Positions 21,893 through 56,253 of a DNA stretch of 64,000 bases are shown one piece after another. Within the stretch, counting starts at the first letter, position 1, and the number at the start of each line of letters is the position of its first letter. This stretch comes from a virus, in IMG/VR virus record IMGVR_UViG_3300042473_001368; one strand, 5' to 3'. The notes below the pieces were generated by a model, which did no database searches, was not told the DNA's origin, and worked only from the letters and a program-made list of their open reading frames with translations. Position numbers and translations under genes: made by a program.

Positions 21893-22139
21893 ACTTTTTC
21901 TTCCAGTTAACTCTTTTAGAGCTCTTCTTTTTATACATCTTACCTTTAATATTCTTACACTGCGCTTTTGTAGGTCTACAAGCAGGGTAAGAGCCTTTAG
22001 ATGTATTTTTTCTACCGCATGGACCACCTGTCTTGCAGTTAATCCAACCTTTGAATTTTTTACCTTTCTTATCTACATGTGGCTGAAACCAATCTCGTAG
22101 ATTCTCTAGTAATTGTCGTTGTGATACAGGTTCGTCCAT
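21885..22139 (-). CDS. Small basic Cys-containing late protein
   Basis: LRDWF, WINCKTGGPCGR, YPACRP; TAATG-coupled to the upstream gene. Confidence 0.7.
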   Translation of the reverse strand: MDEPVSQRQLLENLRDWFQPHVDKKGKKFKGWINCKTGGPCGRKNTSKGSYPACRPTKAQCKNIKGKMYKKKSSKRVNWKKKSS

Positions 22140-22441
22140 TACTTTATTTTACCTCCACGGTTGACACATTTCTGTACATAGCCTGACGCATACGCACTTG
22201 GCCATACATCGTACTTTGCCTTCGCTTTTGACTGACACTTAGAACGTAACTTACTCTTCTTCTTTGGTTTATTCTTTTCTAAGATGATCTCAACAGCTTC
22301 ATTAAAAGTCAATTCTTCATCTTCGACATTAGCATATAATGCTTTGAGATGTTTTTCTGCCTTCTCAACTGTATCTGAACAACCTACGTTCTTGCCAGTA
22401 TCTTTCTTGTAAACGCATTTCCCTTTTCTTTCGTAAGGCAT
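22139..22441 (-). CDS. Small basic Cys-containing late protein
   Basis: KCQSKAKAKYDVWPSAYASGYVQKC; start placed at ATG 22441, 5 nt after CATAAATA. Confidence 0.7.
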   Translation of the reverse strand: MPYERKGKCVYKKDTGKNVGCSDTVEKAEKHLKALYANVEDEELTFNEAVEIILEKNKPKKKSKLRSKCQSKAKAKYDVWPSAYASGYVQKCVNRGGKIK

Positions 22442-22446
22442 GTTAA

Positions 22447-22468
22447 TATTTATGATTCTGACTAAATA
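22447..22468. promoter_or_regulatory. Back-to-back late promoters (CATAAATA minus 22447-22454; ACTAAATA plus 22461-22468)
   Basis: Divergent TAAATA cores upstream of ATG 22441 and the phoH ATG. Confidence 0.65.
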
Positions 22469-22481
22469 ATAATACAACAAT

Positions 22482-23231: not shown

Positions 23232-23232
23232 T

Positions 23233-23281: not shown

Positions 23282-23878
23282 TTACCCCCAGGTTGTACCT
23301 GAGAACCAGTTACCCTTTCCAGGTGTAACATTTGATCCAACATTAGCACCTAGTTTTGCTGGAGGTGATGGTGGAGAATAGTTGACTGTAATAGTCTCTT
23401 GTGGTGCTGCAGGCATCTCAAGTTCTGCACTTGCTTTGGAAGGTGTGTAAATCGCAGAATTATCTACGTGTTCGAAGCATTCTACCTTCTCTACCCAGCA
23501 GCGATCACCTGCAATTTCTTTGATATGCTCACTAGCAATTCGATATACTTCTTCAGCGACTCGTTCAATACCTACACCCTTTTCGAAAACTCTTAATTGA
23601 ATAATACCTTTACGATCTAACTCTATGAATGTCTCGAGCTCTGGATCATCAGCAGCAATACAAGTGGTATGATCAAAAACATATTGTAGCTTCGCTTTTA
23701 GCTCTTTCAGGCCTCCGAAGTCGATAATCCAATTTTTATCGTCGAGTTCAGATCCCCCAAACCAGAGTTTTGCAATAAGCTGATATCCATGGAGAAAATG
23801 GCAGTGACTATGATGTGCTCTCCATTGTCTAAACGCACAAGACCCTAATTCAATTACCTTTGTTGATTGGTAGTTCAT
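23282..23878 (-). CDS. queD: 6-carboxy-5,6,7,8-tetrahydropterin synthase with C-terminal extension
   Basis: HSHCHFLHGY, WIIDFGGLKELK, FDHT, VECFEH. Confidence 0.92.
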   Translation of the reverse strand: MNYQSTKVIELGSCAFRQWRAHHSHCHFLHGYQLIAKLWFGGSELDDKNWIIDFGGLKELKAKLQYVFDHTTCIAADDPELETFIELDRKGIIQLRVFEKGVGIERVAEEVYRIASEHIKEIAGDRCWVEKVECFEHVDNSAIYTPSKASAELEMPAAPQETITVNYSPPSPPAKLGANVGSNVTPGKGNWFSGTTWG

Positions 23879-24752
23879 ATCTAAGATTATATGAACTTTC
23901 TAGCAATTGCAACTGAGTAGGTTTATTACTTTTACTAGTATTTACCGCTGCTACGCTTTCTGCGAAGATTCTTTGTTTTATAAATATTTTTCTTATACTT
24001 TCCCTCTCTGGCTCTGTCACTTGAGTCGTTGGACTCCTCCTGAGGAATGCTTTTAGCATATCTTCTACACCTATATAATCAGTACCAGATGCGCTGGCAC
24101 CAAATTCTCTCGCTAAAGCGATACGACGTGGTTTTGTTAAAGCACTACCTGCTGCATCTTCAATCCATGCAGCTAGATCAGAAACAGATATATTGCTCGG
24201 ATTAGGCCAATCTGCATCTGCAAATTCTTCACCCCAGCTAACTTTTTCACGTTGTTTTTTATCTTTTGTACCTTTATTTATAATCCTATTCGAGCTATCT
24301 CTAATTTCGAGTGTATAATCACCACTAGATCCTTTTTTCGTGCGTGTAAGAATAGCTGTATATTGTTCAGCCTCTCCTTTTTTAGATGGGTCTGTACTAC
24401 CTTCGCCACCTTCTAATTCACCGGGAGCGTTTGGTACATTTACACCTCTTATACGTTTAGCGGTAAATTCTATAGCTACACGGCTATTACCAGCACTATC
24501 ACCTTGAAGTTTCTTTTCCTTACCAATCTTAACAGTATTTAAATTAAATGTATTATAATATTCTGTTTTAAGTGCATCTTTTAATACTTGTTTTGGCTGC
24601 TGCCCTCTAAATGCAGAAGCCATATCTGAAAAAGGCTGTAAGTCGCTCTTAATAGCTTGACCAAGCTTAGATGTCATAAAAGCTCTTGCAGCACCTCTTA
24701 CAATATCACCAAAACCTTCTTCTACTAACTGTCTTTGAGATTCTTTTCTCAT
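23850..24752 (-). CDS. Hypothetical late protein (candidate internal head protein)
   Basis: 300 aa; CATAAATA 5 nt upstream; N-terminal RQLVEE and C-terminal QLQLLES. Confidence 0.6.
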   Translation of the reverse strand: MRKESQRQLVEEGFGDIVRGAARAFMTSKLGQAIKSDLQPFSDMASAFRGQQPKQVLKDALKTEYYNTFNLNTVKIGKEKKLQGDSAGNSRVAIEFTAKRIRGVNVPNAPGELEGGEGSTDPSKKGEAEQYTAILTRTKKGSSGDYTLEIRDSSNRIINKGTKDKKQREKVSWGEEFADADWPNPSNISVSDLAAWIEDAAGSALTKPRRIALAREFGASASGTDYIGVEDMLKAFLRRSPTTQVTEPERESIRKIFIKQRIFAESVAAVNTSKSNKPTQLQLLESSYNLRYELPINKGN

Positions 24753-24801: not shown

Positions 24802-25470
24802 ATGGAAGATCATGATCACGATGAAGCCGGCGAAATTGTTATGCTACCAAAAGCAAATGGTAACAAGCCGCGAACAGATAAAGAAAAGCAAACTATTATT
24901 AAACGTGCAGCAAAAGCATATGAAAAATATCTTGATGCATTAGGTTTTGATTGGCGGAATGATCCTAATTCCTCTAATACTCCTATGCGAGTTGCAAAGG
25001 CTTTTGTAAATGATATTGCAGTTGGTTGTTATACTGAACCTCCTACTGTTACTGCATTTCCATCTGATGGATATGATGGCATTATTGCTCAATGTAATAT
25101 TCCTGTTAAATCTCTTTGCTCTCACCATCACCTTGCTTTTACTGGTGTCGCTCATGTAGCTTACATTCCATCATCTGATGGTAAAGTTATTGGTCTAAGC
25201 AAGCTTAACCGTATTGTAGAGTTTTACGCTCGTCGACCTCAAATCCAAGAGTCGATGACAAGACAAATAGCGACAGCTATAGATACAGTATGTGAAGGTA
25301 ATCAAGGTGTAGCAGTAGTAATCAAAGCTCAGCATACTTGTGCCTGCTTGCGAGGCGTTAAGCATGAAGGATGTTATATGGTAACTAGCAAGCTGTCAGG
25401 AGATTTTATGGATGATGATAAAACTCGTAGCGAGTTCTACAAGTTTATCGATATGTCATCGCCCTCGTAA
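24802..25470 (+). CDS. folE: GTP cyclohydrolase I
   Basis: [58 protein letters not shown]. Confidence 0.97.
25417..25457 (+). repeat. Direct repeat copy 1 (folE 3' end)
   Basis: GATAAAACTCGTAGCGAGTTCTACAAGTTTATCGATATGTC; 39/41 identical to 26129-26169. Confidence 0.95.
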
Positions 25471-25484: not shown

Positions 25485-26084
25485 CTAGCCTGGATGGTCA
25501 GCTAGCAATCGTTTTAGAGTTGGTGCGCAAATCACGTACTTCTTTGAAACCTTGCTAGCTGACATCCCTGTTTTTATATCATGCAGAATCTCATCCCAAT
25601 TTTCAGGTCTAGGTACTGTATATCCCTGTCTTCTTAATTTGATACCTCTATCAAGCAAGTATTTACGTATAGTACATTCATGTACGTTATACATTACTCC
25701 AATTTCCTTTAAGGTGCGTCCGCTCTCGTAAGCTTTAATCATAGAGATTATATCTTTTTCGCGGTATTTTTGATAACTACCTGTTTCCGTGCCATTTTTT
25801 CTGAAGTTGAACAGAGTTCCTCCTTCTTCTAAAATCCCGTATTCCTTAATAAGCTTTGTCTCTAGTTCTAAGGCTTCGGATTCTGATAAATTGCTCGCAA
25901 CAATTTGAATTATATCAGTATTTAAATATCCTTGCTGTAATAATTTGTTTCTTTTATTCTCGCATCTACCTGCGTGATGTTTATTAAACGCTCTATTATA
26001 GCATTTTGCATATTTACCCTTGCCTACATAGAAAACTTCTTGCGTTTTTGGATTGACCCATTTATAGATATAGTACATCTTCAT
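25485..26084 (-). mobile_element. Free-standing GIY-YIG endonuclease with two C-terminal HTH repeats
   Basis: YYIYKW...FYVGKG...R...H, ESEALELETKLI, LFN; two HTH units; TATAAATA at 26090-26097; flanked by the duplicated folE end. Confidence 0.82.
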
Positions 26085-26113: not shown

Positions 26114-26176
26114 TCAGGAAGTTTTAACGATAAGACTCGTAGCGAGTTCTACAAGTTTATTGATATGTCGAGTTAA
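26114..26176 (+). pseudogene. folE: Orphan second copy of the folE 3' end ([20 protein letters not shown]-stop)
   Basis: In-frame 20-codon relic matching the folE end [24 protein letters not shown]; includes repeat copy 2 (26129-26169). Confidence 0.85.
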
Positions 26177-26604
26177 TAATCAACCTCAATATTGTCAGTA
26201 CTAATATTCTTAGCATTGACATCAATCAGAGCATCAAGCTGTCTGATAAAGTCACGACCAATGAGTACTTTGTATTCATTGGTCTCTCTGTTTCCGACGC
26301 TAAAAGCTACATTGTCGAATTCCTGACCAGCAAATTTAACTCTGAAAGTAACAACATATCTTTCTTCGACATGTCCGCCACCGATATTAATATTAATAGT
26401 ATCTGCAATATCTTTAATAAGACGTTTGCCTCCTACTGTAGTAAATAGAATCTTGTCTCCTTGACGTGTGATATCAGTCCCATGAATTACAGGGTGAGCT
26501 GAATTACCGCTATCTACTTTTGCTGCAATTTTGCCAATACCTGCAATATCAATCTCTTCTATGAGACCAATTACGGTTGCTTCGTAAAACTTTTTGAATG
26601 ACAT
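26173..26604 (-). CDS. Retropepsin-like protease of the RimK-associated putative Zn-protease family
   Basis: IGLIEEI, AKVDSGN, EERYVV, NRETNEYKVLIGRDFI; start placed at ATG 26604. Confidence 0.8.
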   Translation of the reverse strand: MSFKKFYEATVIGLIEEIDIAGIGKIAAKVDSGNSAHPVIHGTDITRQGDKILFTTVGGKRLIKDIADTININIGGGHVEERYVVTFRVKFAGQEFDNVAFSVGNRETNEYKVLIGRDFIRQLDALIDVNAKNISTDNIEVDY

Positions 26605-26605: not shown

Positions 26606-27004
26606 TTAGAGATTCTCATAACCGACTTGGAACATTATTGAATGATCATCATCTTGCTCAGCATCTTGGCAGCCGCAATCATCCTTGTATTTGTAGTAGT
26701 CATGAACACCACTGACATAGTCTGCAGCTTTGGCTAATTTAATTAAAGCCCATCCATCGAGATCAGATTTATGCTCGAGAATAGAAAGTAATTCAGGCGC
26801 TACTTCGCTAATTTTACGAAGCTGATTTAATGCCATTTCGATGTCAGAAGACTCGCATTCGCCAGTCTCATCTGTTTCATCTTCACTATAACCGCCTTCA
26901 AATTCTAAGTGATCAGCAGGGACATTAGTAGTAACCATGACCGGCATAGCGGCCTCGCGTATGGTACTATATGCCCTTGCTATATCATAAAGTGTATGCC
27001 TCAT
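26606..27004 (-). CDS. Acidic hypothetical late protein
   Basis: CATAAATA at 27010-27017, 5 nt upstream; MALNQL...WALIKLAKAADYV. Confidence 0.65.
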   Translation of the reverse strand: MRHTLYDIARAYSTIREAAMPVMVTTNVPADHLEFEGGYSEDETDETGECESSDIEMALNQLRKISEVAPELLSILEHKSDLDGWALIKLAKAADYVSGVHDYYKYKDDCGCQDAEQDDDHSIMFQVGYENL

Positions 27005-27031: not shown

Positions 27032-29539
27032 TTATTGTGCTGTTGCAGCTTTTAAGAATTTTGTTTTAAGCTCATCGATAAACTTAGGACTTAAAACAAA
27101 GCTTATTACTGACAAGTAAGGATTTTCATTATTATGTAATCTATTTTCTAGAGTCTTAATGAAACTGTCGATACGAGATTTCTCAGCGTTAATAGCGTTT
27201 TGTGTATCAGTTTTAGCTTTAGTATCTTGATCATCGATCTGAAATAGAGCTCTCTCAATATCTAACTTATATTCTTTAAGCGTAGACGTAAGAGCTGCTA
27301 CCATCTTCTTAGATTCTAAGAACTCAACTTCGCTAGCTGCATCACCGTAGAATACATCTAACATTTCGTCTAGAGTCTTAAACTTAGAGCCACGTGTTTC
27401 GATAGCATCAGTAAGCTTTTGCATTTGCTTATCAGTAAGAATAAAGATGTCAGCGTTTTTAAGAATATTATTCTTAAGCTCATTGTATAGACTCTTTCTA
27501 TATTCTTTCAATGCATCAACACCTGCCCATTGTTCAACTCTACGACGACCAAAGTCTTCGAGGTCTACTAATTTAGCAATAGCGCCTGTCTCCATATTTC
27601 TAATGATAGTACCTTCAATTTCTTTAGCACCTAAAGAAGATGGAATGCTTCTAATACTTGATAGTAAATTTCTCTTAACTAAGCTCTTAAGTCGCTCAAA
27701 CTCTTTTACAGCTTTAGCCTTTAGTATAGCTTCATCACCTGTTCTCTTTCTCGAAGCCATAGCAGCCATATTTTCTGTCGAACATACTCTAGTGATTTGC
27801 TTCTTAATAATATCCTTAATTTTAAGCTCTACAGGCTTCTTAGTATAAGCCTTCCAAGAACTCGTATCATTTATTGTTTCAGCAACTTGTGATAAGATAT
27901 CTTTACCTAGTTTTGAGGTAGTTATATCCTCACCTTTACTGGTTGTTTGTTTTACAGCACCAAAGAGAACTACAGCTCCATTACCAATAAGCTCCGGTGA
28001 GTATTCAATAACATTCATATGTGCTTTGCCGAACAACTCACCAAAAATTTGAATAGGTGCGTTTAGTCTTTCTTGTAGACTCATTAACACTTCCTTTATA
28101 TTGCTCTTATTAAGAGAATTTAAAAAGTTACCAAAACTCTCGAATACATCGTTTTCGAGATCCTTTGCTAATCGAAAGAATTCATTTGCATCTGTAATAG
28201 GGTTACCGCGTTTTGATTTAACATACAGATTATTGTTCTCATCTAAACCAAAAGATACATTTGAACCGTCGTACTTTTCAGATACCTCCCATGCATCGCT
28301 GCTAAACAGATTACAGAAATCTTTAGGTGTCATCTGATCGATGTGAGGGATAGCAACCATCTTTACAGCTTCACTTAAAATATCATCTGCTGTTTTAGTA
28401 AACAATCCGTCAATGTCCTTATTAGTTACATTGCCAAAGAATGGTAATAGGTAATTAAGAGCAGATTTCGCATCATCAAGAGACATCTGACCTACATTTC
28501 TACCTCTAGAAGGGTCAGGTATTTTTGTTTTAATATTCTTAATAAGGTTATCCCAGATCTCTTGTTTTCTTGTTTGATCGAATGTTGAAATTAGTTTAGC
28601 CATCTCAACAACATGCTTCATGTGTTCAGGTGTTTTAAATCCAAGGATGTTAGCAATAATTTGTAATTCGTTATAATCTACATTGATTGCTTCGCCGTCA
28701 GTAACAAATCTTTGAAGTTGATCGTATTGAACACCTCCGCTGCTATAACCTTTCTCCTTACCATCAACCATCCATGCAATTTTATATGCAAGACCGCTAC
28801 CACCTAATGTGTATCTTATCTTGAAAGTAACATCGCCTTTTTTACCATGTTTCTCAACAAACTTTTTGTATTGTTCGGTGTTTTGAATCAATGATCTAAG
28901 ATTCTCCATCTTCTTGTTATCAATCGGTGTTGATGAAGTTATACCTCTAATTAGAAGATCTCTAACTACACCTTTAACACCTGCAGCAATATCTGCAAAG
29001 CTAGAAAACTGTGTAAATTTAAGGAAATCTTCCTTCTCTGACATATCGACAATATCAATCTGAATGACCTGACTTGAATCACCAACAACTACAGCGACAT
29101 TAGCTTCTCCACCAGCTGCAGCAGCTGCATACTTACCTGTAAATTCGCTATTTAAGAATTTAGCTATATCAGATGCACTAACACCTTGCGTATAATGTAC
29201 ATCGAGATCGATGTCACCGAAATCCTTTTTATTTTGAAGTGCTTTGTCGATTATTTCTGGAGTTTCAATCTCATTAGGCTCGGGAGCCATAAGACCAGCC
29301 TTAATCGCAAACAATCTGCTACTGCCTAGAACATAAGACGGTTCTTTTGCATCAATAAATCTGTTTTTTCTTAAGATAGATAACAGACTTTGTACCTCGT
29401 CTAGCACTGTAGGTGACACTGTAGCGCGTGCATATTTTAGTTTCTGATTACCTGTTGCTGCAATTAAACCGTTAACTAAATTGTCAGCCGCTTGACCGCC
29501 CTCTAACAACATTCTAAAATATGTTTTAAAATTTATCAT
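27032..29539 (-). CDS. Nucleotidyltransferase (Pol beta fold) fused to an RNA/DNA ligase-like adenylation domain
   Basis: N-half LGSS, FGDIDLDV, IQIDIV. C-half SEKYDGSN (motif I), IFGELFG (III), EIEGTIIR (IV), AKLV (V). CATAAATA at 29549-29556. Confidence 0.7.
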   Translation of the reverse strand: MINFKTYFRMLLEGGQAADNLVNGLIAATGNQKLKYARATVSPTVLDEVQSLLSILRKNRFIDAKEPSYVLGSSRLFAIKAGLMAPEPNEIETPEIIDKALQNKKDFGDIDLDVHYTQGVSASDIAKFLNSEFTGKYAAAAAGGEANVAVVVGDSSQVIQIDIVDMSEKEDFLKFTQFSSFADIAAGVKGVVRDLLIRGITSSTPIDNKKMENLRSLIQNTEQYKKFVEKHGKKGDVTFKIRYTLGGSGLAYKIAWMVDGKEKGYSSGGVQYDQLQRFVTDGEAINVDYNELQIIANILGFKTPEHMKHVVEMAKLISTFDQTRKQEIWDNLIKNIKTKIPDPSRGRNVGQMSLDDAKSALNYLLPFFGNVTNKDIDGLFTKTADDILSEAVKMVAIPHIDQMTPKDFCNLFSSDAWEVSEKYDGSNVSFGLDENNNLYVKSKRGNPITDANEFFRLAKDLENDVFESFGNFLNSLNKSNIKEVLMSLQERLNAPIQIFGELFGKAHMNVIEYSPELIGNGAVVLFGAVKQTTSKGEDITTSKLGKDILSQVAETINDTSSWKAYTKKPVELKIKDIIKKQITRVCSTENMAAMASRKRTGDEAILKAKAVKEFERLKSLVKRNLLSSIRSIPSSLGAKEIEGTIIRNMETGAIAKLVDLEDFGRRRVEQWAGVDALKEYRKSLYNELKNNILKNADIFILTDKQMQKLTDAIETRGSKFKTLDEMLDVFYGDAASEVEFLESKKMVAALTSTLKEYKLDIERALFQIDDQDTKAKTDTQNAINAEKSRIDSFIKTLENRLHNNENPYLSVISFVLSPKFIDELKTKFLKAATAQ

Positions 29540-29557
29540 TATATTTGTTATTTATGT

Positions 29558-30760
29558 TTATACATCAGAAAGAAGCGAACCTACTTTTATATCTTTTGTA
29601 TCTACTTTACCCGCTGAAATACGCTGCTTTTTAAGATCTCTCTCAACATCCTGCGCTGACCTACGAACCATATTTGAATCTTTATCCACATTAGCTTGTA
29701 GTGAAAAGCCAAATCCATCAGTTCTTACTGCAGTTCGTATACTACTTGGAAGATTATTTATACGGTTCCACACATCTTCTATATTTGATAGATCTTTAAA
29801 ATTAATAAACTGCATCCAGATATTATTACCTCCTAGTTTATCATTAAATGCAATCATCGAATCAAATTTTTGCGCTTCTTTATACGCTAACAGTTGAACC
29901 ACGCCTGCTATTTTTACAATAATACTAAGTGATGGGAATTTACCCTTTCGTTTAAAGTAAATGTAATTTTCTACAACTTCGTTTTTTATATCTTCTGTAC
30001 TTATAAGAGCTTGGACCTCACTATTGTACTTGTCCGTGCCTGACAGCTTACCTACTGTATCAGCTACACCACCCAATAACTCCACGTCATTTTTGAAGTC
30101 ACCATCAGCCAGTTCGTTTAATGCTTCCACAGGATCAATCTTTCCACTCTTATACAGTCTTCCATTATAGCCCTTTAATTCTATATCTTCGCTACCTACT
30201 CGTAAGTCTCCTTTTTGCGGCTTGACACCGTTGCAGAAAAACGCTAAAAACAATTCGCCTGAACCAGCTCTACCCATTACAGCAGCAGCAGGACTAGTAG
30301 CCCACGCTTCTTTAAAATACTTATTATTTACATTTACATTATCGCCATAGATTTCTTCAATAAAACTATCAAGCATAATGCCTTCGTTATTTTCAATACA
30401 CTTGAGAATGAATTCTTCTCCTTTTTTTAGCGTATCTTCGTCTATAAGAAACCCACCGTCTTCTACATAGCTTTGAAACGTATTTAAATTATCAGAAGTA
30501 GCTCCATTATTTTTCTTAAGAACTGTTTGAATGATCTTTCTTGTTCCAATTGAATTAGTAGAACCGAGTTTGATATATTTTTTAAGTGTATCATTATAAA
30601 ACTCATCGTCAATATCACCTACTAATTCATAGTCATCACCTTTCTTCTGATATAATGAAACACTTTCATTATATCCTTTTACAAGGTGTCTGCTTTCTGC
30701 GAGGTGCCCGATAGGCGCTACAGTTTCTTTGTATAATTTGCTTAGTTCTCTATTAGACAT
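29558..30760 (-). CDS. Putative PD-(D/E)xK nuclease-fold protein
   Basis: GSGELFL...KGDL...IELKG spacing matches the E...D...ExK catalytic pattern. Confidence 0.5.
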   Translation of the reverse strand: MSNRELSKLYKETVAPIGHLAESRHLVKGYNESVSLYQKKGDDYELVGDIDDEFYNDTLKKYIKLGSTNSIGTRKIIQTVLKKNNGATSDNLNTFQSYVEDGGFLIDEDTLKKGEEFILKCIENNEGIMLDSFIEEIYGDNVNVNNKYFKEAWATSPAAAVMGRAGSGELFLAFFCNGVKPQKGDLRVGSEDIELKGYNGRLYKSGKIDPVEALNELADGDFKNDVELLGGVADTVGKLSGTDKYNSEVQALISTEDIKNEVVENYIYFKRKGKFPSLSIIVKIAGVVQLLAYKEAQKFDSMIAFNDKLGGNNIWMQFINFKDLSNIEDVWNRINNLPSSIRTAVRTDGFGFSLQANVDKDSNMVRRSAQDVERDLKKQRISAGKVDTKDIKVGSLLSDV

Positions 30761-31490
30761 CTTTTAAATCAATTTCTGGTTCTTCTGTTGGGGAGTCGAG
30801 TTCTTCCAGATTATCCTCAAGTTCGCTATCTTCAAGAGATTGATTTAGTGTTTTTGCAATAAAGTTCTCAATCTTTGTAGGCTCAACTTCGGTAAACTCA
30901 TCAACTACAGGTTTGAGCATCATAAGCTCTTCGTCAGTTGGTTTATGCGCTAATGCTTTAAGTATAAGTTCTTTATAAAGCGGGAAGATTTCTTCTAGAG
31001 ACAATTCTGATTTTTTTGCAGGAACTGGAGCTTCACCTTCTACCGGAGCAGTAGGTTGCTCTTGCGTATCTTGTTGAGGTTCTGTAGCATCTGCTGGTTG
31101 CTCAAGTAATACCATCAACTTATTAATAAACTTAATCGTCTTTGATTCTGTCTTAAGAGATGGTTGATTATTTTTAAGCTCTCTGCATAAGCTGTTATCA
31201 ATACATATAATATTAGTAATATCAGCAACTATTTTAGAGATAGGCACATTAACAGACTTTGATAGACGTTGTATATCGTTAGCAATAGTTTGCTGAGTCT
31301 CGCGACTGAACAGCGTTGGATTAAAAATAAAAGCATGAGTCAATATTTTGATCATATACTTTTGATTTTCAGGCATTACAGGTGCAGCAGCTGGTGGCTC
31401 AGCCATTGCAGCTGCGTTAGGATCTTCACCTGGCTCCTGTTCGTTTAACAGCTTAAAATATTGTTCGAAAATTTTATTTGTCTTTTTCAT
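30753..31490 (-). CDS. Acidic hypothetical protein with two-fold internal repeat
   Basis: LLNEQ-(P/A linker)-KYMIKILTHAFIFNPT and LLEQ-(P/Q linker)-LYKELILKALAHKPT. Confidence 0.65.
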   Translation of the reverse strand: MKKTNKIFEQYFKLLNEQEPGEDPNAAAMAEPPAAAPVMPENQKYMIKILTHAFIFNPTLFSRETQQTIANDIQRLSKSVNVPISKIVADITNIICIDNSLCRELKNNQPSLKTESKTIKFINKLMVLLEQPADATEPQQDTQEQPTAPVEGEAPVPAKKSELSLEEIFPLYKELILKALAHKPTDEELMMLKPVVDEFTEVEPTKIENFIAKTLNQSLEDSELEDNLEELDSPTEEPEIDLKDV

Positions 31491-31492: not shown

Positions 31493-31921
31493 TTATCGGG
31501 TTACATTGTAATTCATTGATCCTGAATCAAACTTACTAATAGCATTAGCTAAATTAAGTGTCATAGCGTTATACTTATCAATAGCTTTTGAAGCTACATC
31601 CTCTCTTTTTTTGACCGCTGCTTTAGCTTTACCTGCACTGCTGAACGAGTTAAATCTACCACCGAAATTTGGCTTTGAAGCAAGTCCTTCAACTCCTTTA
31701 TCAATTGAATATGAAATATCCTCAGCTTCTTCTTCATCTGTGTCATCGATAATAGCAAGCTTGATAGGTGTATTGTCTACAGTGATAGTAATCATATCAC
31801 CATCTGTACTTACATCAACGCTGTTAATTAAGTTTAAAAGCTCCGCAAGTTTATGTACCATCTCCTGTCTATCTGAATTTTGTGGATCTACTTGCTCTAG
31901 AATCTTGAGAAATTTACTCAT
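31493..31921 (-). CDS. Hypothetical late protein
   Basis: AATAAATA at 31927-31934, 5 nt upstream; begins MSKFLKILEQ. Confidence 0.7.
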   Translation of the reverse strand: MSKFLKILEQVDPQNSDRQEMVHKLAELLNLINSVDVSTDGDMITITVDNTPIKLAIIDDTDEEEAEDISYSIDKGVEGLASKPNFGGRFNSFSSAGKAKAAVKKREDVASKAIDKYNAMTLNLANAISKFDSGSMNYNVTR

Positions 31922-31929: not shown

Positions 31930-32376
31930 TTATTTCAACAGTGCAAGTTTATTCATACAATCAGTCAAAACATGTTCATCGACATACTTTAGATTATAGC
32001 TCTTAGCAAAGTCTTTTAGCTTTTTTATAAAATTTTTAGGTTTTAATACCTTACTAATACATAAAATTTTAAAAACTTTCTGAATATAAGGTAAAATATC
32101 CTTACTAACCAGTCTTTTTTTAAAAATATACTCTATTTGACAGTGAATATTTAACTTTTTTTGTTCTATATAATGAACTATAACGTTATGATAGAACAGA
32201 CTCTCAACATCTTTCACTGTTAGATCATAAGGTACACCTATTAAATCACACTGATAATACGTTTGTGTAATAGAATCATCAATTATTTTATTGAGATCAA
32301 TAGGTCTACAGTGTCGAAGGTCTGTGTTTTGGTCTTGAGACCCTAATGTTGATAATGCCATTGTAGTATTGTTCAT
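31930..32376 (-). CDS. Hypothetical protein (start uncertain)
   Basis: Fills the gap between genes; candidate starts overlap the upstream gene. Confidence 0.5.
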   Translation of the reverse strand: MNNTTMALSTLGSQDQNTDLRHCRPIDLNKIIDDSITQTYYQCDLIGVPYDLTVKDVESLFYHNVIVHYIEQKKLNIHCQIEYIFKKRLVSKDILPYIQKVFKILCISKVLKPKNFIKKLKDFAKSYNLKYVDEHVLTDCMNKLALLK

Positions 32377-32731
32377 TAAACAGAACCTCTCTTTCAATTT
32401 GCATTTTAATCTCACTGTAAGCTAAATCAAATTTTGATTCACACCACTTCAATATTTCAAATGTAAAGTTAGCTTTACCATGAGTAACAATATCTTCATT
32501 TAACTCTCTGCAAGATGATGTATAATCCTTCCAATCTGTCTCTTTTTCTTCGTGTCTTTTGTTCTTTTTACCTTTTAATGGCTTACGTTTAAGGATTGTT
32601 AGACATTGCTTTTTACCAATATACTTTTTACCTGTTAAATTATTTGTTATAAGGTAGATAAATCCATAAGGCTTATCAAGATTTTGATGTGACTCAAGTG
32701 AAAGTGACCAATGACCGAAATTTTTTTCCAT
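32306..32731 (-). CDS. GIY-YIG endonuclease, endonuclease II (DenA)-like
   Basis: YGFIYLITNNLTGKKYIGKKQ, WKDYTSS, FEIL, YYNGII; single short domain. Confidence 0.8.
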   Translation of the reverse strand: MEKNFGHWSLSLESHQNLDKPYGFIYLITNNLTGKKYIGKKQCLTILKRKPLKGKKNKRHEEKETDWKDYTSSCRELNEDIVTHGKANFTFEILKWCESKFDLAYSEIKMQIEREVLFNEQYYNGIINIRVSRPKHRPSTL

Positions 32732-32802: not shown

Positions 32803-33012
32803 TTATTTCGTTTTATTTTTATGTTTTCTTTTAGATTTACGTCCGACCTTACCTCTACGCGATGTTACACCTAATAATTTTGGTACGCGTGAATCGCCTG
32901 GTGCATAAAAATCTGATCCAGATATACTATCAGTTGATCCTGGTGATCCTCCAAGTGCATCAGATACAGTTATATCTTCGTAAAATTGCTTAAATGTTCT
33001 GTGCTTACTCAT
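32803..33012 (-). CDS. 69-aa late protein with capsid-like YAPGDSR motif and basic tail
   Basis: Start placed at ATG 33012, 8 nt after CATAAATA (33021-33028); MSKHRTFKQFYED...DFYAPGDSRVPKLLG...RKSKRKHKNKTK. Confidence 0.75.
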   Translation of the reverse strand: MSKHRTFKQFYEDITVSDALGGSPGSTDSISGSDFYAPGDSRVPKLLGVTSRRGKVGRKSKRKHKNKTK

Positions 33013-42836: not shown

Positions 42837-42841
42837 TCTAT

Positions 42842-43054
42842 ATGGACTTCGACGAAGCTGTACAAGAGATATTGAAAGAGAATTATGCAGATGGTAAAAA
42901 ACCAGGTCGTAAAGGTCTCGCAAAACGTAAAGGCGTTAACTGTAAGAAAAGTGTTACAGAGCTGAGACGTGTAGCTAAAAATAGTAGCGGAGAAAAGCAA
43001 CGAATGGCTCACTGGTGTGCTAACATGAAGAGCGGTCGTAAAAAGAAGAAATAA
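42842..43054 (+). CDS. Small basic late protein
   Basis: ILKENYADGKKPGRKG...C...AHWCANMKSGR. Confidence 0.75.
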   Translation: MDFDEAVQEILKENYADGKKPGRKGLAKRKGVNCKKSVTELRRVAKNSSGEKQRMAHWCANMKSGRKKKK

Positions 43055-43092: not shown

Positions 43093-44229
43093 ATGGCTAA
43101 AAGCGCAATTGAAAAAGAAGTAGAGTCAGCTTTGGACCTACTAGATGAAGCGAATCCTTATGCTACATGGCTTAATGAAAGCACACTGAGTAGAGTTGAT
43201 GATTGGATTGATACAGGTTCGTATGCATTAAATGCAATTATTTCTGGTTCGTGCTTTAAAGGTATACCAGCAGGACGTGTAACTGTACTAGCAGGTGAAT
43301 CACAAACCTTTAAGACAGGATTCTTAATGAGAATTCTTGCTAATGCACAACGGATGGGTAAACACATTGTTATCTTTGATAGTGAGAATGCTATTGACCC
43401 TGAGAGTGCAGAAGCTGCTGGTCTTGATGTATCTAAAGTAAAGTATGTACCGTGTAAGACTATTGAACAGACACGTAACTCGGTCTTTAATTTCTTAAAT
43501 CGAGTAGAAGAAAAGAAACTTGAAGGGCAGTTTGTTATTGCTGTTGACTCGCTTAGTAATTTACAGTCTGAAATGGACTTTAAACGAATGGATAAAGACA
43601 ATACTAGTCAAGATACTGGTACAAAAGCAAGAGCGATGAAGACGCTTATGCAGACATTAACAAATATGGGTGGCTTAACACGTACTACTGTTATTTGTAC
43701 TTCGCATGTTTATGACAATCCAATGGAGTTATTTCCATCGCTTGAGAAAAATATGCCAGGTGGTAAGTCAGTAATTTATCTACCATCTGTCACTGTTCAG
43801 ATTGCTCGTAAGCCAATGAAGGATGATGGCGGTAAGACAATTGATAAAACTATTGCTGTTGGTCAAAAGAGTTATAGTGGTATTTTGCTACGAGCTCTTA
43901 CTCGTAAGAATCGTTTCATTAAACAGTATCTTGAAGTTGAGATGTATCTTTCTTTCGCGAATGGTCTCAACAAATACTATGGATTGCTTGACTTGTTAGT
44001 TGGTTTTGGTATTGTTGTTCAGACAGGATCTACATATCAACTACCTGATGGCACAAAGCTTGGTTACTATAAGAACTTCAGAAAGAATACCGAACTTTGG
44101 GAAAATACATTTATACCAGAACTAGAAAAGAAGATCGCTATTGAGTGGAAGTATTCTTCGTCATCATCACAAGAGGAAGAAGATGAACTTGATGAGGTTC
44201 TGGAAGATATTGAAGATACAGAAGTATGA
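43093..44229 (+). CDS. uvsX: RecA-like recombinase
   Basis: IDTGSYALN, LAGESQTFKT, FDSENA, AVDSL, GGKSVIY. Confidence 0.93.
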   Translation: MAKSAIEKEVESALDLLDEANPYATWLNESTLSRVDDWIDTGSYALNAIISGSCFKGIPAGRVTVLAGESQTFKTGFLMRILANAQRMGKHIVIFDSENAIDPESAEAAGLDVSKVKYVPCKTIEQTRNSVFNFLNRVEEKKLEGQFVIAVDSLSNLQSEMDFKRMDKDNTSQDTGTKARAMKTLMQTLTNMGGLTRTTVICTSHVYDNPMELFPSLEKNMPGGKSVIYLPSVTVQIARKPMKDDGGKTIDKTIAVGQKSYSGILLRALTRKNRFIKQYLEVEMYLSFANGLNKYYGLLDLLVGFGIVVQTGSTYQLPDGTKLGYYKNFRKNTELWENTFIPELEKKIAIEWKYSSSSSQEEEDELDEVLEDIEDTEV

Positions 44230-44990
44230 AATCTAGAAAATTAATTTTATTATTAAGTGGAGGCATGGATTCGTCCGTGCTTCTGTTTATGGCTGGTAGA
44301 CAGGACTTTGCTGAAGTTCATACACTAACTCTCGATTATGGTCAACGCCATAATCGAGAGATTGAGTGTGTTAGTAAGCAGCTTAACGATGCTAAGTTGA
44401 AATACCCTAACACGATTTTTACAAATAAAGTGTTAGATGTAAAATACCTAAAAGATATTTCACCTACATCATCTTTAACTAATCTTGAGATTGATAACCC
44501 AGATATTAGTAAGATTGCAGGTGATGCTCAACCAGCTTCATATGTACCATTTAGAAATCAAATGTTTCTATCTATCTGTTGTGCGTATGCAGAAAGTATG
44601 CAAGCAGATACGATTTGGTATGGTGCAGCTCAAGTAGATTCACTTGCTGGTTACTGGGATACTACAGATTATTTCATTAGCTCGTTTAACAAGCTAATTT
44701 CGCAGAATAGAAAGCATCAAATTACAATCGAAGCTCCTTTACTTGAAATGAGTAAAGCTGATATTGTTAATGAAGGTATTGAATGTAATATCAACTTTGC
44801 TGATACATGGACATGCTATAGTAATAGAGAAGACGGATTGGCAGATGCTACCACTCCGTCTTCTAGTCTAAGGATTCGAGGCTTTATTGAAGCAGGTTAT
44901 CGAGATCCTATACAGTATGTTCAGCAAGATTCGTTAGACGAACTGTACCAAGCTAATAACTGTAGGGAATTACATCCCATAGTTTCTTAG
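44226..44990 (+). CDS. queC: 7-cyano-7-deazaguanine synthase, lacking three of four Zn-binding Cys
   Basis: LSGGMDS, DYGQRH, YVPFRN, IEAPLLEMSKADIV, TWTCY followed by DATTPSS in place of CGxCxSC. Confidence 0.88.
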   Translation: MKSRKLILLLSGGMDSSVLLFMAGRQDFAEVHTLTLDYGQRHNREIECVSKQLNDAKLKYPNTIFTNKVLDVKYLKDISPTSSLTNLEIDNPDISKIAGDAQPASYVPFRNQMFLSICCAYAESMQADTIWYGAAQVDSLAGYWDTTDYFISSFNKLISQNRKHQITIEAPLLEMSKADIVNEGIECNINFADTWTCYSNREDGLADATTPSSSLRIRGFIEAGYRDPIQYVQQDSLDELYQANNCRELHPIVS

Positions 44991-46379
44991 CTCAGCTAAT
45001 TGCTTCCATGTCTTAGGTTTCATCCGCTCTTTGAATGTCATAGTTTGAGGAGCGGCTTCCTGTTTATGTGATCTACGAGTCATGCCTTCAAGATATATGG
45101 ATGTATAACTTTCTGTAACACGCTTTTGTTTGAGAGCTCTCTTCATAGGCTCTTTTTCATTACCGTCTTTATCAAAGTCTAAATAGTCTGGTTTTGATTC
45201 TTCGTCTTCGTCTTCATCTTCATCTTCGCGGTCATAAGGTTCGTCACTGATACCCATCTCTCTACTTATACGTCTATCGCGTCTTCTTTTATTTAGCTCT
45301 CTTTCTCTCGCAATATCAGGACCATAGTCGTCATCACGATCGAACGGCCCGTCTTCCTCTTCAGCCTCCTCTTCTTCTCCTTCACGTTTACCGAAAGTAT
45401 CATGCACCATACTATCTAGTTTTTTATGAAACTTAGTCTCTTCACCTCTACTAGCGCCATATTCTTCGTCTTCAGAAACAGCTTTATCAGAGTGAAGATC
45501 AACAACGATTTGAGCCTCATCGATATCAGGTCTTGCTCTCATAACAAGACTCAAGATCATGTCTTCCGCGTCTTGCACTGATGTACCAAAAGAACCAGCA
45601 GGTCCTTCAACATTAACACCGCGACGTGTCTTCTCTGCTGTGTAATTAGGTTGTTTATTAAAGAACTTAACAAGTTTATCAACAAGGGTATCACGATCTT
45701 TGATCACACCGATATTAATATCGATATCATCGAAATTTAACTTTACGTCTTCTGCTCCTTTGAAGCCAATACCAGCAGCAACATCAGCTCTATCTACAAC
45801 TTCACGGTCAGCATCATCAAGAGTGTTTACAAGTATATCAACAGCAGATTGAACATCTGCTTCTTCGCCTTGAGCTGCAGCTTTAAGCGCAAGAGTCTGC
45901 TGCTTAGCTTCACCTGCAGCTTTTCTTTTTGCAGCAAGCTCAGCAGCTTGTGCAGCATATTTATCACGTCTACCACCGCTACCACCCTCGACTTTAGCAT
46001 TAGGCATCATATCTCTACCACGGTTAAGAGTAGAACGGTTAATATAATTTTCAAGCTCTGCAGGCATTTCCTCTTCAATACGGGCACTATTAGCTACAAT
46101 CTCACTGCTCTTAGCTTTAATAATTTCAAGAAGAGCGAGTTGCTTACCTTTAAATCCCTGTGCTTTAAGAACAGATCGTTCTTCATCATCACTAATAATA
46201 CCTAGCCCACTAAGAAATGTTGCAATAAACTTGACAGTGTCATATGGAGCAGAGCTCATACCACGAGTTGCCATAGACTTAGTAATACCTCCAAAAGATG
46301 GATGCGTACCTGCAAACGGAGATGTTTTAGCTTCGGTAATAAATCCATACCGTGTTAGTAGATTATCGAAAGATCTCAT
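44970..46379 (-). CDS. Acidic late protein with DxDxDG motif, candidate internal head protein
   Basis: TATAAATA at 46388-46395; KPDYLDFDKDGNEKEPMKRA; D/E-rich tract. Confidence 0.65.
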   Translation of the reverse strand: MRSFDNLLTRYGFITEAKTSPFAGTHPSFGGITKSMATRGMSSAPYDTVKFIATFLSGLGIISDDEERSVLKAQGFKGKQLALLEIIKAKSSEIVANSARIEEEMPAELENYINRSTLNRGRDMMPNAKVEGGSGGRRDKYAAQAAELAAKRKAAGEAKQQTLALKAAAQGEEADVQSAVDILVNTLDDADREVVDRADVAAGIGFKGAEDVKLNFDDIDINIGVIKDRDTLVDKLVKFFNKQPNYTAEKTRRGVNVEGPAGSFGTSVQDAEDMILSLVMRARPDIDEAQIVVDLHSDKAVSEDEEYGASRGEETKFHKKLDSMVHDTFGKREGEEEEAEEEDGPFDRDDDYGPDIARERELNKRRRDRRISREMGISDEPYDREDEDEDEDEESKPDYLDFDKDGNEKEPMKRALKQKRVTESYTSIYLEGMTRRSHKQEAAPQTMTFKERMKPKTWKQLAELRNYGM

Positions 46380-46387
46380 ATATCATA

Positions 46388-46395
46388 TATTTATA
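46388..46395 (-). promoter_or_regulatory. T4 late promoter TATAAATA
   Basis: Exact consensus 8 nt upstream of ATG 46379. Confidence 0.85.
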
Positions 46396-53351: not shown

Positions 53352-53686
53352 CAACAACAGCAAACTATCCTCAGAAGAATAAAATCACAACTCTTTCATA
53401 TTTTGTAAAGCGTCTTAAAGACTCTGGATTCAATACATGGAAACTTGTTGATAATTATTCACAAGCTGACCCTCGTAAATGGACAATCATAATAGATCCA
53501 GGTAATACATCTGTGTTTGTTACATGTTATGAAAATAAAGATTTCAAATCAGATAAGATGTTTGAGATTAACGATGGTGACAGGTACTTTCCTCGTAACT
53601 TTTCCGTAAAGACAAGCTCGATGGAAGTTATTATTGCGCTACTAATTGAAAAGGGTATACCTCAAGTAAGTCAACAAGAGCAGTAA
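53348..53686 (+). CDS. Hypothetical protein
   Basis: 112-aa ORF with ATGA overlap. Confidence 0.6.
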   Translation: MTTTANYPQKNKITTLSYFVKRLKDSGFNTWKLVDNYSQADPRKWTIIIDPGNTSVFVTCYENKDFKSDKMFEINDGDRYFPRNFSVKTSSMEVIIALLIEKGIPQVSQQEQ

Positions 53687-53952
53687 TGGACGACATCTCA
53701 CTAGGAGATACATATGCAGTTCATACCGGCGCATACGCTGGTGAACTGCTTATTTGTGTAGGTAAGGAAGGTAAAAATTACAACTTCCTTGCAACACCAA
53801 CAATGGAAAATAGAATTATACCTCGTGTTATTGTTGAACACGGAAGGAACAAGGGTATAATTAAATTCGTAGAAGTGGTACCAGATTATGTACTGCAAAT
53901 ATCAAAAGAACAATTTAAAGTAAATGAAAACTCTAATAATAGACGGGAATAA
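53686..53952 (+). CDS. Hypothetical protein
   Basis: 88-aa ORF with TAATG overlap. Confidence 0.55.
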   Translation: MDDISLGDTYAVHTGAYAGELLICVGKEGKNYNFLATPTMENRIIPRVIVEHGRNKGIIKFVEVVPDYVLQISKEQFKVNENSNNRRE

Positions 53953-54796
53953 TACAATACATCGAACATACTGGACTGCTAAAAATCAAGTTCAGCGTAT
54001 GAAGAGCGATGATCCTGATCTACTTAGAAACTTTCATATTCACTTTACTCTCAATGCGATATTTTCGTATGTATGCAAATACAAGCCAACGCGCACAATT
54101 TGCGTATGGGATGAAAAACCTGACTACATGCAGAACGACCGTAAAGCGCAGTTCGGTGAGTACAAAGGCAATAGAAGTTCTGATTCCTCTCCACATGAAA
54201 ATAACGAGACGATTAAACGCTTCTTATCTAACTTAAGCGTGTTGTCAATGTTTCCTCGTCAACTTGAAGCGGATGATATTGTCGCATTTTTGTGCCACGA
54301 ACTTGAAGGTAAAAAAGTTATTGTATCTGTCGATAAGGACTTTCTTCAACTAGTTAATAAAGATGTTACACTGTTTAACCCTATCAAGAAAGAGGAATAT
54401 GACTACACAAACTTTGCTGAAGTAACTGGTTTGCCTGATACAAAGACATGGTTAGATGTAAAATGCTTAACAGGTGATAAATCAGACAATGTTCCAGGTA
54501 TCGCGAAGTTTGGGAAGGTCAAAGTTCAGAAATGGCTTAAAGGCGAAATTACTCTCAATGAAGAGGAGCAAGAAATTGCAAACCGTAATAGGTCTTTATT
54601 TTCTTTAGATCTTTATAAGTCATACGACGATGAGAAATCGTACTATGAGACTCAGTTACAAAAAGAGCAGGTGTCTTCATGGAAAGAATTTCTTAAAGAT
54701 TGTAACGAATTACAACTAAACCAAATTTTAAGTAAAAAAGATAGTTGGCATTCTGCTTTCTTCCTCCAAAATAAGTTACAGTCACTGTTTGCATGA
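53924..54796 (+). CDS. rnh: 5'-3' exonuclease / T4 RNase H (FEN family)
   Basis: LIIDGNN, YKGNR, EADDIVA, SVDKDFLQL, GDKSDNVPGI. Confidence 0.93.
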   Translation: MKTLIIDGNNTIHRTYWTAKNQVQRMKSDDPDLLRNFHIHFTLNAIFSYVCKYKPTRTICVWDEKPDYMQNDRKAQFGEYKGNRSSDSSPHENNETIKRFLSNLSVLSMFPRQLEADDIVAFLCHELEGKKVIVSVDKDFLQLVNKDVTLFNPIKKEEYDYTNFAEVTGLPDTKTWLDVKCLTGDKSDNVPGIAKFGKVKVQKWLKGEITLNEEEQEIANRNRSLFSLDLYKSYDDEKSYYETQLQKEQVSSWKEFLKDCNELQLNQILSKKDSWHSAFFLQNKLQSLFA

Positions 54797-55854
54797 TTAC
54801 ACTACCGGAAGAATATGTTGTCTCGAAATTTTATCAGTATACATATCAACCGAAGTACAATCGATATAATCAAACTTATCAGGGTGGGTGTCCGATTTGT
54901 AGAGAGGGTGATTCACTAGGTAGGAAACAGAGATGTTATTACATCTGCAAGACAGATGTAATCTTTTGTCATAACTGTGGCTGGTCGAGTAGAACATTCA
55001 AATGGATTAAAGAAGTTTCACGTAAAACTGATTCTGAGATCCTAGAGGATGTTAAACGATTTAGGCCTGATATAACTTCGCTTGACGAAGAGGTAAATGT
55101 TGTTGTAAAAAAAGTAGAGGCAACGCTTCCTGAAGACAGTATCAATCTATTTGATGAAAGTCAGTTAGCATACTATAAAAACAATCCAATAGTATCTGCG
55201 TGTCTGCAAACGATAAAGAAAAGACGGTTGGATACAGCGGTTAACAAGCCATTTGCATTATACGTTTCATTAACAGACCCTGTTCATAAGAATAGACTCA
55301 TAATTCCGTTTGTAAATGAAAGAGAAAAGATCGAATTTTATCAGTCACGTACAATTATACCTACAGACAATAAGACCAAGCCAAAGTATATCTCGAAGAT
55401 TGGTGGAGAAAAGACACTCTTTAACATAGACAAGGTAGATAGTGATTACCCATTTGTTTTTGTCTTTGAAGGGCCACTGAATGCTTTCTTTGTAAAAAAT
55501 AGTGTAGCAGTTGCAGGTATTACAGAAAAAAGTATCAAGTCATTGACGCAAAGACAGCAAAAGCAAATGGATTCAACTCTCAAATGGTTTGATCGTGTGT
55601 GGGTGCTCGACAGTCAATGGGTTGATAAAGCAGCACTATCTAAGAGTGAAATTCTTCTTAAGGAAGGCGAGACTGTCTTTATTTGGCCTGAGCAAATCGG
55701 TAAGAAGTTTAAAGACTTTAATGATATATGTATTACAGGTAAGCGAGATGAAATCTCAGATGATTTTATACAAAAAAATTCCTTCAAAGGACTTGAAGGA
55801 ATTTTTAAACTCTCTGCAATTAAAGCTCAGCAGCAATTATACACCGCGAAGTGA
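54793..55854 (+). CDS. gp61: DNA primase
   Basis: CPICREGDS...CHNC zinc finger, RLIIPF, FVFEGPLNA (TOPRIM), FKDFND. Confidence 0.92.
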   Translation: MITLPEEYVVSKFYQYTYQPKYNRYNQTYQGGCPICREGDSLGRKQRCYYICKTDVIFCHNCGWSSRTFKWIKEVSRKTDSEILEDVKRFRPDITSLDEEVNVVVKKVEATLPEDSINLFDESQLAYYKNNPIVSACLQTIKKRRLDTAVNKPFALYVSLTDPVHKNRLIIPFVNEREKIEFYQSRTIIPTDNKTKPKYISKIGGEKTLFNIDKVDSDYPFVFVFEGPLNAFFVKNSVAVAGITEKSIKSLTQRQQKQMDSTLKWFDRVWVLDSQWVDKAALSKSEILLKEGETVFIWPEQIGKKFKDFNDICITGKRDEISDDFIQKNSFKGLEGIFKLSAIKAQQQLYTAK

Positions 55855-56253
55855 TGCATTTGAAGATGTTGCAAGGAATCCTTTGAATGATTCATTAAGA
55901 GCTGCAAGCTCTGTTGCAACACGAGCAATTTTACGTTGTTCAGACTGTTTCATCTTATCAAAGAGTGTATCAGGAGCTGATTGAGCTAATACTGTTTGAA
56001 TAGAGTTTTCTGTTCCATTGAGCTTTTCAAGAAAGGACTCAAGAGAATCAATCCAACCCTTTAATTCACTTACCATAGCAGCATTTTGCTCTGCCATAGC
56101 AGTAGCAACAGCTGTCGAATCACCACTTGATACTGGTGAGGTATCAAAAGCAGCTGGATCTGTTCCTTGATCAAGCGACGCTTCCATAGCTTCGCGATCC
56201 ATATCATCTTGTTCTCTTAAAACCTTAAAAAAGCGTTTACCGAAGTCATTCAT
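55837..56253 (-). CDS. Hypothetical late protein
   Basis: ACTAAATA 5 nt upstream; MNDFGKRFFKVLREQ. Confidence 0.7.
   Translation of the reverse strand: MNDFGKRFFKVLREQDDMDREAMEASLDQGTDPAAFDTSPVSSGDSTAVATAMAEQNAAMVSELKGWIDSLESFLEKLNGTENSIQTVLAQSAPDTLFDKMKQSEQRKIARVATELAALNESFKGFLATSSNASLRGV

Follow-up and report, generated by a model that had tools for sequence, protein, structure and literature searches.

Putative T4-type capsid-targeting propeptides on late proteins of a distant, uncultured T4-like myophage

In phage T4, the capsid-targeting sequences (CTSs) of the internal proteins IPI, IPII, and IPIII and the short propeptide of Alt are removed by the protease gp21 (Mullaney and Black 1996, via PMC9026906, PMC3012670, PMC5694885), and Alt is processed at both ends (PMC5694885). 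Residues 4 and 7 of the IPIII CTS serve targeting and residues 8 and 10 processing, and gp21 itself has the site LIE-9 (PMC9026906). According to the T4 record (NC_000866), IPII and IPIII start with MKTYQEFIAE/A (the slash marks the cut) and gp61.1 with MKTFKEFIKE/D, and the sites of the head proteins read MLKEQLIAE/A in gp22, MNEPQLLIE/T in gp21, MAKINELLRE/S in gp24, MEGLIE/A in gp67, and FLTE/AEIGG in gp23. The tagged head proteins of T4 are the first phage proteins to reach the host, with anti-defence factors among them; IPI counters GmrSD, and IPIII is needed on strain ECOR17 (PMC3012670; bioRxiv 10.1101/2022.04.14.488369). In the giant phages phiKZ, 201phi2-1, and SPN3US, a protease related to gp21 cleaves many head proteins, enzymes included, after Glu, and their propeptides are thought to target proteins into the prohead (PMC5694885, PMC7411985). 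CTSs on diverse internal proteins of T-even phages, enzyme cargo (Alt), and the Glu-specific head proteases of giant phages are established, and reviews suggest that T4-like phages load varied proteins via CTSs (PMC3012670, PMC9026906, PMC5694885). Here we describe candidate N-terminal tags of this kind on late proteins encoded in a 64,000-nucleotide stretch of viral DNA, IMG/VR virus record IMGVR_UViG_3300042473_001368, the whole of which is called the window below.

Tagged late proteins in the window

We consider it probable (about 75%) that 11 late proteins of the window carry amphipathic CTS propeptides of the T4 type, which would mediate docking on the core, be cut by the protease after a Glu, and result in retention of the proteins in the head. 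The tag helix, in which an aromatic residue near position 4 is followed by a hydrophobic one 3-4 positions on, would dock the protein on the gp22-type scaffolding core during prohead assembly, then the gp21-type serine protease would cut after the Glu of a hydrophobic-x-Glu motif, and the freed protein would remain in the head with the DNA. An earlier sequence-only reading of the window had proposed about a dozen tagged proteins; the 12 N-termini that it quoted are all present, letter for letter, at the starts it gave, and the following 11 are supported at the sequence level, whereas the one at 30760 was rejected (aa, amino acids; pI, isoelectric point).

27032-29539, minus strand: 835-aa predicted enzyme; tag MINFKTYFRMLLE/GG, codons 29501-29539; own late promoter
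32803-33012, minus strand: 69-aa basic protein; tag MSKHRTFKQFYE/D, then a copy of the capsid N-arm and a basic tail; late promoter; mature pI 10.5
42842-43054, plus strand: 70-aa very basic protein; tag MDFDEAVQEILKE/N; TATAAATA promoter, hairpin upstream; mature pI 11
21885-22139, minus strand: 84-aa very basic protein; tag MDEPVSQRQLLE/N (type C); translationally coupled to a late-promoter gene; mature pI 10.5
23850-24752, minus strand: 300-aa basic protein; tag MRKESQRQLVEE/GF (type C); late promoter
26173-26604, minus strand: 143-aa putative retropepsin-like protein; tag MSFKKFYE/A; start directly after the stop of the gene at 27004
30753-31490, minus strand: 245-aa acidic protein; tag MKKTNKIFE/QYFKLLNE/Q (type B, two possible sites); pI 4.4
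31493-31921, minus strand: 142-aa acidic protein; tag MSKFLKILE/Q; late promoter
55837-56253, minus strand: 138-aa acidic protein; tag MNDFGKRFFKVLRE/Q; CTAAATA late promoter
26606-27004, minus strand: 132-aa acidic protein; tag MRHTLYDIARAYSTIRE/A; late promoter
44970-46379, minus strand: 469-aa acidic protein; tag MRSFDNLLTRYGFITE/AK; TATAAATA promoter

The source of the window is an uncultured T4-like myophage with a genome of about 200 kb, very distant from T4. The minus strand of the window carries, among others, the genes of a gp23-type capsid protein, a gp22-type scaffold, and a gp21-type protease, a gp4-like gene, and a portal gene, and the plus strand those of UvsY, UvsW, gp55, gp47/46, the DNA polymerase, and UvsX. 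Megablast of the window found no DNA-level match among cultured phages; the identity of the capsid protein to those of cultured phages does not exceed about 33% (the best being a cyanophage gp23), and the protease is about 41-48% identical to gp21 of cyanophages and a pelagiphage. The relatives used came from IMG/VR and include two large genomes, G006 (complete, 195,888 bp, with terminal repeats) and G005 (also locus L046, 198,847 bp), and further related loci, L001-L004 and L012 among others, in which orthologues were read; alignment A2 was made without L034 and L035, which have a stop codon within the chosen ranges.

Orthologues were judged by the pattern of variation (free tag, fixed P3 and P1, that is, the hydrophobic residue and the Glu of the motif, and conserved body) in place of plain retention of the motif. 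In homologues down to 29-43% identity, P3 is L, I, or V and P1 is Glu, and there is conservation of the residues that come next. The 18 homologues of the 835-aa protein (43-87% identity) have an invariant E13-G14-G15-Q16-A17-A18, P3 is always L, I, or V, and P2 is free, while the tags vary in sequence and length (for example MINFKTYFRMLLE, MINYKVYYKHFIRCNGQILTE, MSSFKSLIQSILNE, and MITLKEYINNKSVFYNTKKTILLE). The family of the 469-aa protein, followed down to 29% identity, starts with the pattern M-x-S-F-x-[ND]-L...[ILV]-x-E/[AG][KR]-x-S-P, with an invariant F4 and a free P2 (T, A, S, I, N, or K). Nine further tags keep the cut-site pattern in orthologues whose bodies are 34-70% identical. In contrast, a chance motif in the early gp46 gene, VIFE, changed to VIFD or VIFK in orthologues. 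The codons of the tags vary synonymously, which argues for selection on the peptide rather than on the RNA.

The tags are 8-17 residues long. P3 is L, I, or V in nine of the 11 and Phe in two (FYE), and the orthologues of one FYE tag read IAE. Six tags have Phe at position 3-4 and another two have it at 7-8, followed 3-4 positions on by a hydrophobic residue; the targeting determinants of positions 4 and 7 are absent from the two type-C tags. The helical hydrophobic moment of the tagged N-termini is 0.72, as against 0.50 in other N-termini (p = 7e-6). The motif [LI]xE with its Glu at residues 5-20 occurs in 10 of 22 late-promoter genes (45%), in 10 of 59 other genes, and in 17.7% of internal sequence windows, a late enrichment with Fisher p = 0.011 and binomial p = 0.002. 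The more specific pattern F-[KEDNQ]-x-[FYLI]-[FYLIH] was found within the first 12 residues of three of the 22 late genes of the window (0.29 expected), in 5/69 late N-termini of G005 (0.59 expected, p = 3e-4), and in 3/35 of G006 (0.41 expected, p = 0.008), and the specific tag patterns are 8-10 times over expectation at late N-termini in the three genomes. The patterns, called R1 and R2, were devised after the sequences had been seen, R1 from the window with G005 and G006 as tests, and R2 from G005 with the window and G006 as tests.

The proteins behind the tags had been called unrelated, and no tagged pair of the window proved to be related after tag removal (best E = 0.096). The tag itself had been described as T4-like, which stands with regard to its resemblance to the T4 CTS and to the encoded gp21-family protease; the tags are not one sequence, though, and fall into at least three types. 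In the relatives, the type-B tag of the 245-aa protein also occurs on unrelated late proteins, two in G006 and nine in G005. The nine start with MN-x-D-x-x-L-[IV]-F-E-A-Y, showed no similarity to each other after tag removal, and several of them lie in tandem at 9.6-15 kb. At least eight type-A tags were counted in G005, and another 26 open reading frames (ORFs) in the divergent loci have tags like MxKFDxLLxE. At about 9600-15100 of G005, six or more late genes follow one another in tandem, all starting with a tag of type A or B on bodies that are unrelated.

The sequence-only reading had assigned all these tags to late-promoter genes. A (T/C)ATAAATA-like element of its own lies 5-9 nt ahead of the ATG in nine of the 12 genes, and those at 26604, 31490, and 30760 have none but are internal to late operons; the start of the gene at 22139 is fused with the stop of a late-promoter gene in TAATG. 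The element is genuine: of 25 ATAAATA copies in the window, 16 stop 3-14 nt short of a called start on their own strand, with 0.19 expected. The 11 supported genes are predicted to be late, eight by this upstream element and three by their place in late operons. No Shine-Dalgarno sequence is visible behind the late-promoter elements (for example at 29540-29560, 46380-46395, and 42829-42841), and with so short a gap to the ATG the late mRNAs would have almost no leader.

The rejected candidate is a 400-aa protein (29558-30760, minus strand) with the claimed tag MSNRELSKLYKE/T. The residue at P3 of its LYKE is Tyr, and the 42%-identical orthologue in L004 reads MHSWNLEKIYSKQVK, without a matching Glu. 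The gene lacks a late promoter, and the protein gave no family match.

Head protease, scaffold, and the candidate cargo

The proteins that would act on the tags are encoded in the window, together with the reference substrate of the protease.

6372-7037, minus strand: gp21-type prohead protease; PF03420, 111.9 bits (cut-off 27); phrog_207, 6e-57
5200-6066, minus strand: gp22-type scaffold; PF25623 (T4_CASP), 30 bits (cut-off 27); N-terminus MKVKSLLNE/D, present as quoted for comparison in the sequence-only reading
3669-5129, minus strand: gp23-type major capsid protein, reference protease substrate; PF07068, 289 bits

The protease belongs to MEROPS family S77; its GELNHP and G-M-S-S-R (GMSSR) align with the His and Ser motifs of T4 gp21, and in its N-terminus, MALTLNLLVE/K, LLVE aligns with LLIE-9 of T4. 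The scaffold has 15 internal [LIV]xE sites, that is, 5.6 per 100 aa as compared with a window median of 1.7, whereas the density of such sites in the tagged proteins is at or below the composition-based expectation, as would be expected if the scaffold is degraded while the cargo is trimmed of nothing but the tag. The position of the T4 capsid cut, LTE65/AEIGG, aligned with WCE/S in the window, CFE/A in G005, and LTE/A in G006. P3 seems to be looser here than in T4, which would fit the FYE tags.

Between the protease and the scaffold lies an 83-aa ORF (6075-6326, minus strand) with a lysine-rich start and an [LIV]xE density of 6.3 per 100 aa, four sites being found in 63 residues where 0.8 were expected. 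Its homologue in G005 has 221 aa. It may be a small core protein in place of T4 gp67/gp68.

Searches of PHROGs and Pfam gave no match for most of the cargo proteins. That enzymes are among them, as had been claimed, is borne out by an RNA-ligase domain and a retropepsin-like domain, both above the Pfam cut-offs. The former lies in the middle of the 835-aa protein (PF09414, 31.1 bits, cut-off 27), the KxDG motif of which, E421-K422-Y423-D424-G425, is invariant among the homologues, except Y423 (at least 90%). Foldseek searches with the model of the whole protein gave NgrRnl, T4 Rnl2, and Rnl1 as top matches with a probability of 1.00, in which only the ligase domain was seen. In the AlphaFold2 model, residues 2-8 are helical and are followed by a stretch of low confidence. 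The N-terminal half, in which GSSRLF and FGDIDLDV are invariant among the homologues, had no Pfam match; folded alone, it gave weak Foldseek matches (best E 1.6e-3, TM about 0.2), all of them to terminal uridylyltransferases, Pol beta/lambda/X, or CD-NTases. It is a likely candidate for a Pol-beta-type nucleotidyltransferase. A second site, ILSE(390)/AV, lies in the linker between the halves, where pLDDT is below 50; 17 of the 18 homologues have [LIM]-x-E/A[VTL] there by manual count (13 by automatic tally), and it is likely to be a second cut that would separate the two enzyme halves. Among relatives it surpasses the DNA polymerase in conservation (86% vs 62% in L001), and tblastn found nothing like it among cultured phages. 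It is conceivable, but doubtful, that a two-enzyme precursor for RNA repair or modification is packaged into the head, split at the linker, and that both halves are injected as a first response against RNA- or tRNA-cutting defences of the host.

The 143-aa protein matches PF05618 over residues 64-136 (29.3 bits, cut-off 27) and has a D-S-G motif, VDSGNS, at residues 30-35, and it is predicted by this family match to be retropepsin-like, that is, aspartic-protease-like. The tags of its orthologues read NTFKKFYE/A and, in L001, MKTFKTFYE/S.

Three of the tagged proteins, of 69, 70, and 84 aa, are small and very basic, with a mature pI of 10.5-11. The tag of the 69-aa protein reads FKQFYE/N, FKDFFYE/D, FKQFFYE/S, and FLKLIAE/D in orthologues. 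Its next part resembles residues 78-107 of the capsid protein, with 16 of 31 residues shared (E = 5e-7): the N-arm copy SDFYAPGDSRVPKLL corresponds to GDNYAPGDSRLPKIL of the capsid protein, and the DFYAPGD motif is kept in orthologues. From the tag onward it also matches T4 gp61.1 (MKTFKEFIKE/DM..., E = 2e-4), and judging by this match it is a homologue of gp61.1. The sole orthologue of the 70-aa protein, a close one, reads MSFDELVNMLLTE/NYADGKKPG, in which the tag is changed and L-x-E and the mature N-terminus are kept; since it is the only one, support for the tag at 42842 is moderate. The 84-aa protein has an orthologue with MEQMSQRLLLE/N and a homologue in G006 that reads MATKLTEFLRLIE/A and then has a basic body. 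The larger basic protein, of 300 aa, has SQRQLVNE/AF and SQNELLDE/GF in orthologues of 34-42% identity, and SQRQL[LV]E is common to it and the unrelated 84-aa protein.

The five acidic proteins have a pI of 4.1-4.9, one with an acidic Pro/Ala-rich stretch directly after the tag. In orthologues of the 245-aa protein the tags read LFERYFQLLNE/Q, LLQKLMKLHVE/Q, ILDKYLKIYLE/Q, and LIDNYLRILE/Q, and the remainder is 38-70% identical. Those of the 142-aa protein have MSKFLKLLE/Q, MSKFLQIIE/E, MSKFLEIVE/S, and MSKFLKLVAE/S, with synonymous codon changes in the tag, and the body is only 40% identical in L002. Homologues of the 138-aa protein start with MNKFEKSFFKLLSE/Q in L012, MLFKSRFDFVLE/A in G005, and MANLKQIFLNTLLE/Q in G006, and orthologues of the 132-aa protein with DIARAYTTIRE/A and, at 36% identity, GLARAYSLIAE/M. 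The 469-aa protein has a long, acidic, length-variable middle and a second site, RVTE(423)/SYTS, 46 residues from the C-terminus; [VLIMG]-x-E/SYT was found in all homologues read, and the protein may be cut here near its C-terminus, as T4 Alt is.

Two GIY-YIG genes lie within the operon of the tagged genes. The one at 25485-26084 (minus strand) has no counterpart in any related locus and is therefore probably a recent homing-endonuclease insertion; the other, at 32306-32731 (minus strand), is SegE-like (PF19835, 105.7 bits) and is kept in L001-L004. Among the tagged late genes are also scattered genes of a 7-deazaguanine-type pathway (24802-25470, plus strand; 44226-44990, plus strand; 23282-23878, minus strand); the set comprises GTP cyclohydrolase I and QueC, and a conserved 198-aa protein may belong with them.

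Alternative explanations

Several points weigh against tagging and packaging as proposed. Docking, cleavage, retention, and injection are inferred. The bare (L/I)xE motif is a weak indicator that carries little information, and 18-29% of internal sequence windows have a hydrophobic-x-Glu motif. In automatic calls on the two whole related genomes the broad motif was only marginally enriched in late over other genes, and the case is not built on it. The all-against-all ungapped comparison of N-termini in the window did not rise above controls, and the one in G006 was confounded by paralogue families. A simple test of motif retention in orthologues was also high for conserved early N-termini, for example 15/15 for UvsY, and conservation alone is thus no proof of a cut site. 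With Phe at P3, the FYE tags do not follow the L/I rule of T4, and the likely capsid cut is WCE; because of both, a protease specificity looser than that of T4 is assumed. The tags at 42842, 22139, and 31921 rest on few or close orthologues.

Among the alternatives, the one that fares best takes the tagged proteins, chiefly the five acidic ones, for parts of the prohead core, counterparts of gp67/gp68 that are cut and then lost in maturation. We regard this as possible, if rather unlikely. T4 gp67 has its MEGLIE/A site at the very start and a strongly acidic tail, the low pI values and the Pro/Ala-rich stretch described above are in line with such a role, and no gp67/gp68 homologue was found between the portal and the protease here. 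However, the [LIV]xE density of the acidic proteins does not exceed expectation, unlike that of the scaffold and the 83-aa ORF, and a role as core parts agrees with the CTS reading on tagging and cleavage and differs only in the fate of the proteins. The five acidic proteins may be either core parts or cargo kept in the head and not injected.

The amphipathic helix could also be an uncut docking peptide for another late machine, such as a chaperone, a membrane, or a tail part, which we think improbable. Short amphipathic helices have many docking roles, and T4 RNA ligase 1 (gp63) also acts in tail-fibre attachment. Yet the helix always ends in the motif that is cut by the T4-type protease family, the protease and the scaffold of this phage themselves begin with that motif, and the conserved body starts with the residues that follow the Glu.

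Still less probable is a chance collection, in which a hydrophobic-x-Glu motif that is common near N-termini was noted wherever it happened to fit. The frequency of the motif, its marginal genome-wide enrichment, the N-terminal scores that did not exceed controls, and the failure of the tag at 30760 all speak for it. For 11 of the 12 it is largely refuted by the specific patterns, which are over-represented at late N-termini in three genomes, by the invariant E/GGQAA behind a length-variable tag in 18 homologues, by the recurrence of the same tags on unrelated proteins across relatives, and by the greater amphipathicity of the tagged N-termini. Equally remote is an origin in the translation-start needs of near-leaderless late mRNAs, whose A+T-rich first codons would give K, N, F, and I without any protein signal: the promoters do lie close to the ATG with no Shine-Dalgarno sequence in sight and K, F, and N abound in the tags, but the portal, tail, and fibre genes share this promoter layout without a tag, the tag codons vary synonymously, and the conserved Glu and P3 lie 8-17 codons from the start, where an effect at the RNA level would not account for them.

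Returning to CTS-type propeptides on 11 late proteins, the best candidates for delivery to the host with the DNA would be the three small basic proteins and both predicted enzymes, namely the ligase/nucleotidyltransferase precursor and the small aspartic-protease-like protein.

Comparison with known systems

Like the CTS of T4, the tag is a short peptide of late proteins with an aromatic or hydrophobic residue at about positions 4 and 7 and a hydrophobic-x-Glu end; it stands on unrelated proteins, the predicted cargo includes small basic proteins and enzymes, and the phage has genes for both a gp21-family protease and a gp22-type scaffold. The tag of the L001 orthologue of the 143-aa protein, MKTFKTFYE/S, nearly repeats MKTYQEFIAE and the MKTFKEFIKE of gp61.1, and the basic proteins of 69, 70, and 84 aa are like the T4 internal proteins in size and charge. 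The tandem run in G005 resembles the variable internal-protein loci of T-even phages. Unlike the T4 set, there are at least 11 clients in the window alone and about 17 or more in relatives, with three types of tag as against one in T4; Phe and Val also occur at P3, and none of the predicted cargo is homologous to IPI-III or Alt.

T4 gp61.1, a 54-aa hypothetical protein encoded next to the primase gene, has the same build as the 69-aa protein: a tag with E/D, a Gly/Ser-rich copy of the N-arm of its own capsid protein, and a basic tail. It differs in that the gene of the 69-aa protein adjoins uvsY and not the primase gene, and in that the capsid copy follows the capsid of its own phage (YAPGDSR[VL]PK), not that of T4 (TSGAV). 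The acidic tagged proteins are like gp67/gp68 in being small late proteins with an N-terminal L/I-x-E site; unlike these, they are not rich in internal sites, and no sequence similarity between the two was found. In giant phages the motif is S/A/G-x-E and the propeptides often exceed 100 residues, whereas here, as in T4, it is hydrophobic-x-Glu after 8-17 residues.

Among the papers searched, none was found that lists such tags in distant T4-like lineages. The T4 tag is still readable in a lineage whose capsid protein is one-third identical, so that injected cargo would be listable from sequence alone in uncultured phages. The comparison also hints at a great age of the tag-scaffold contact, which bears on T4-type heads as vehicles for protein delivery. 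The principle is known from T4; what appears to be new here is the cargo list, above all the putative ligase/nucleotidyltransferase precursor.

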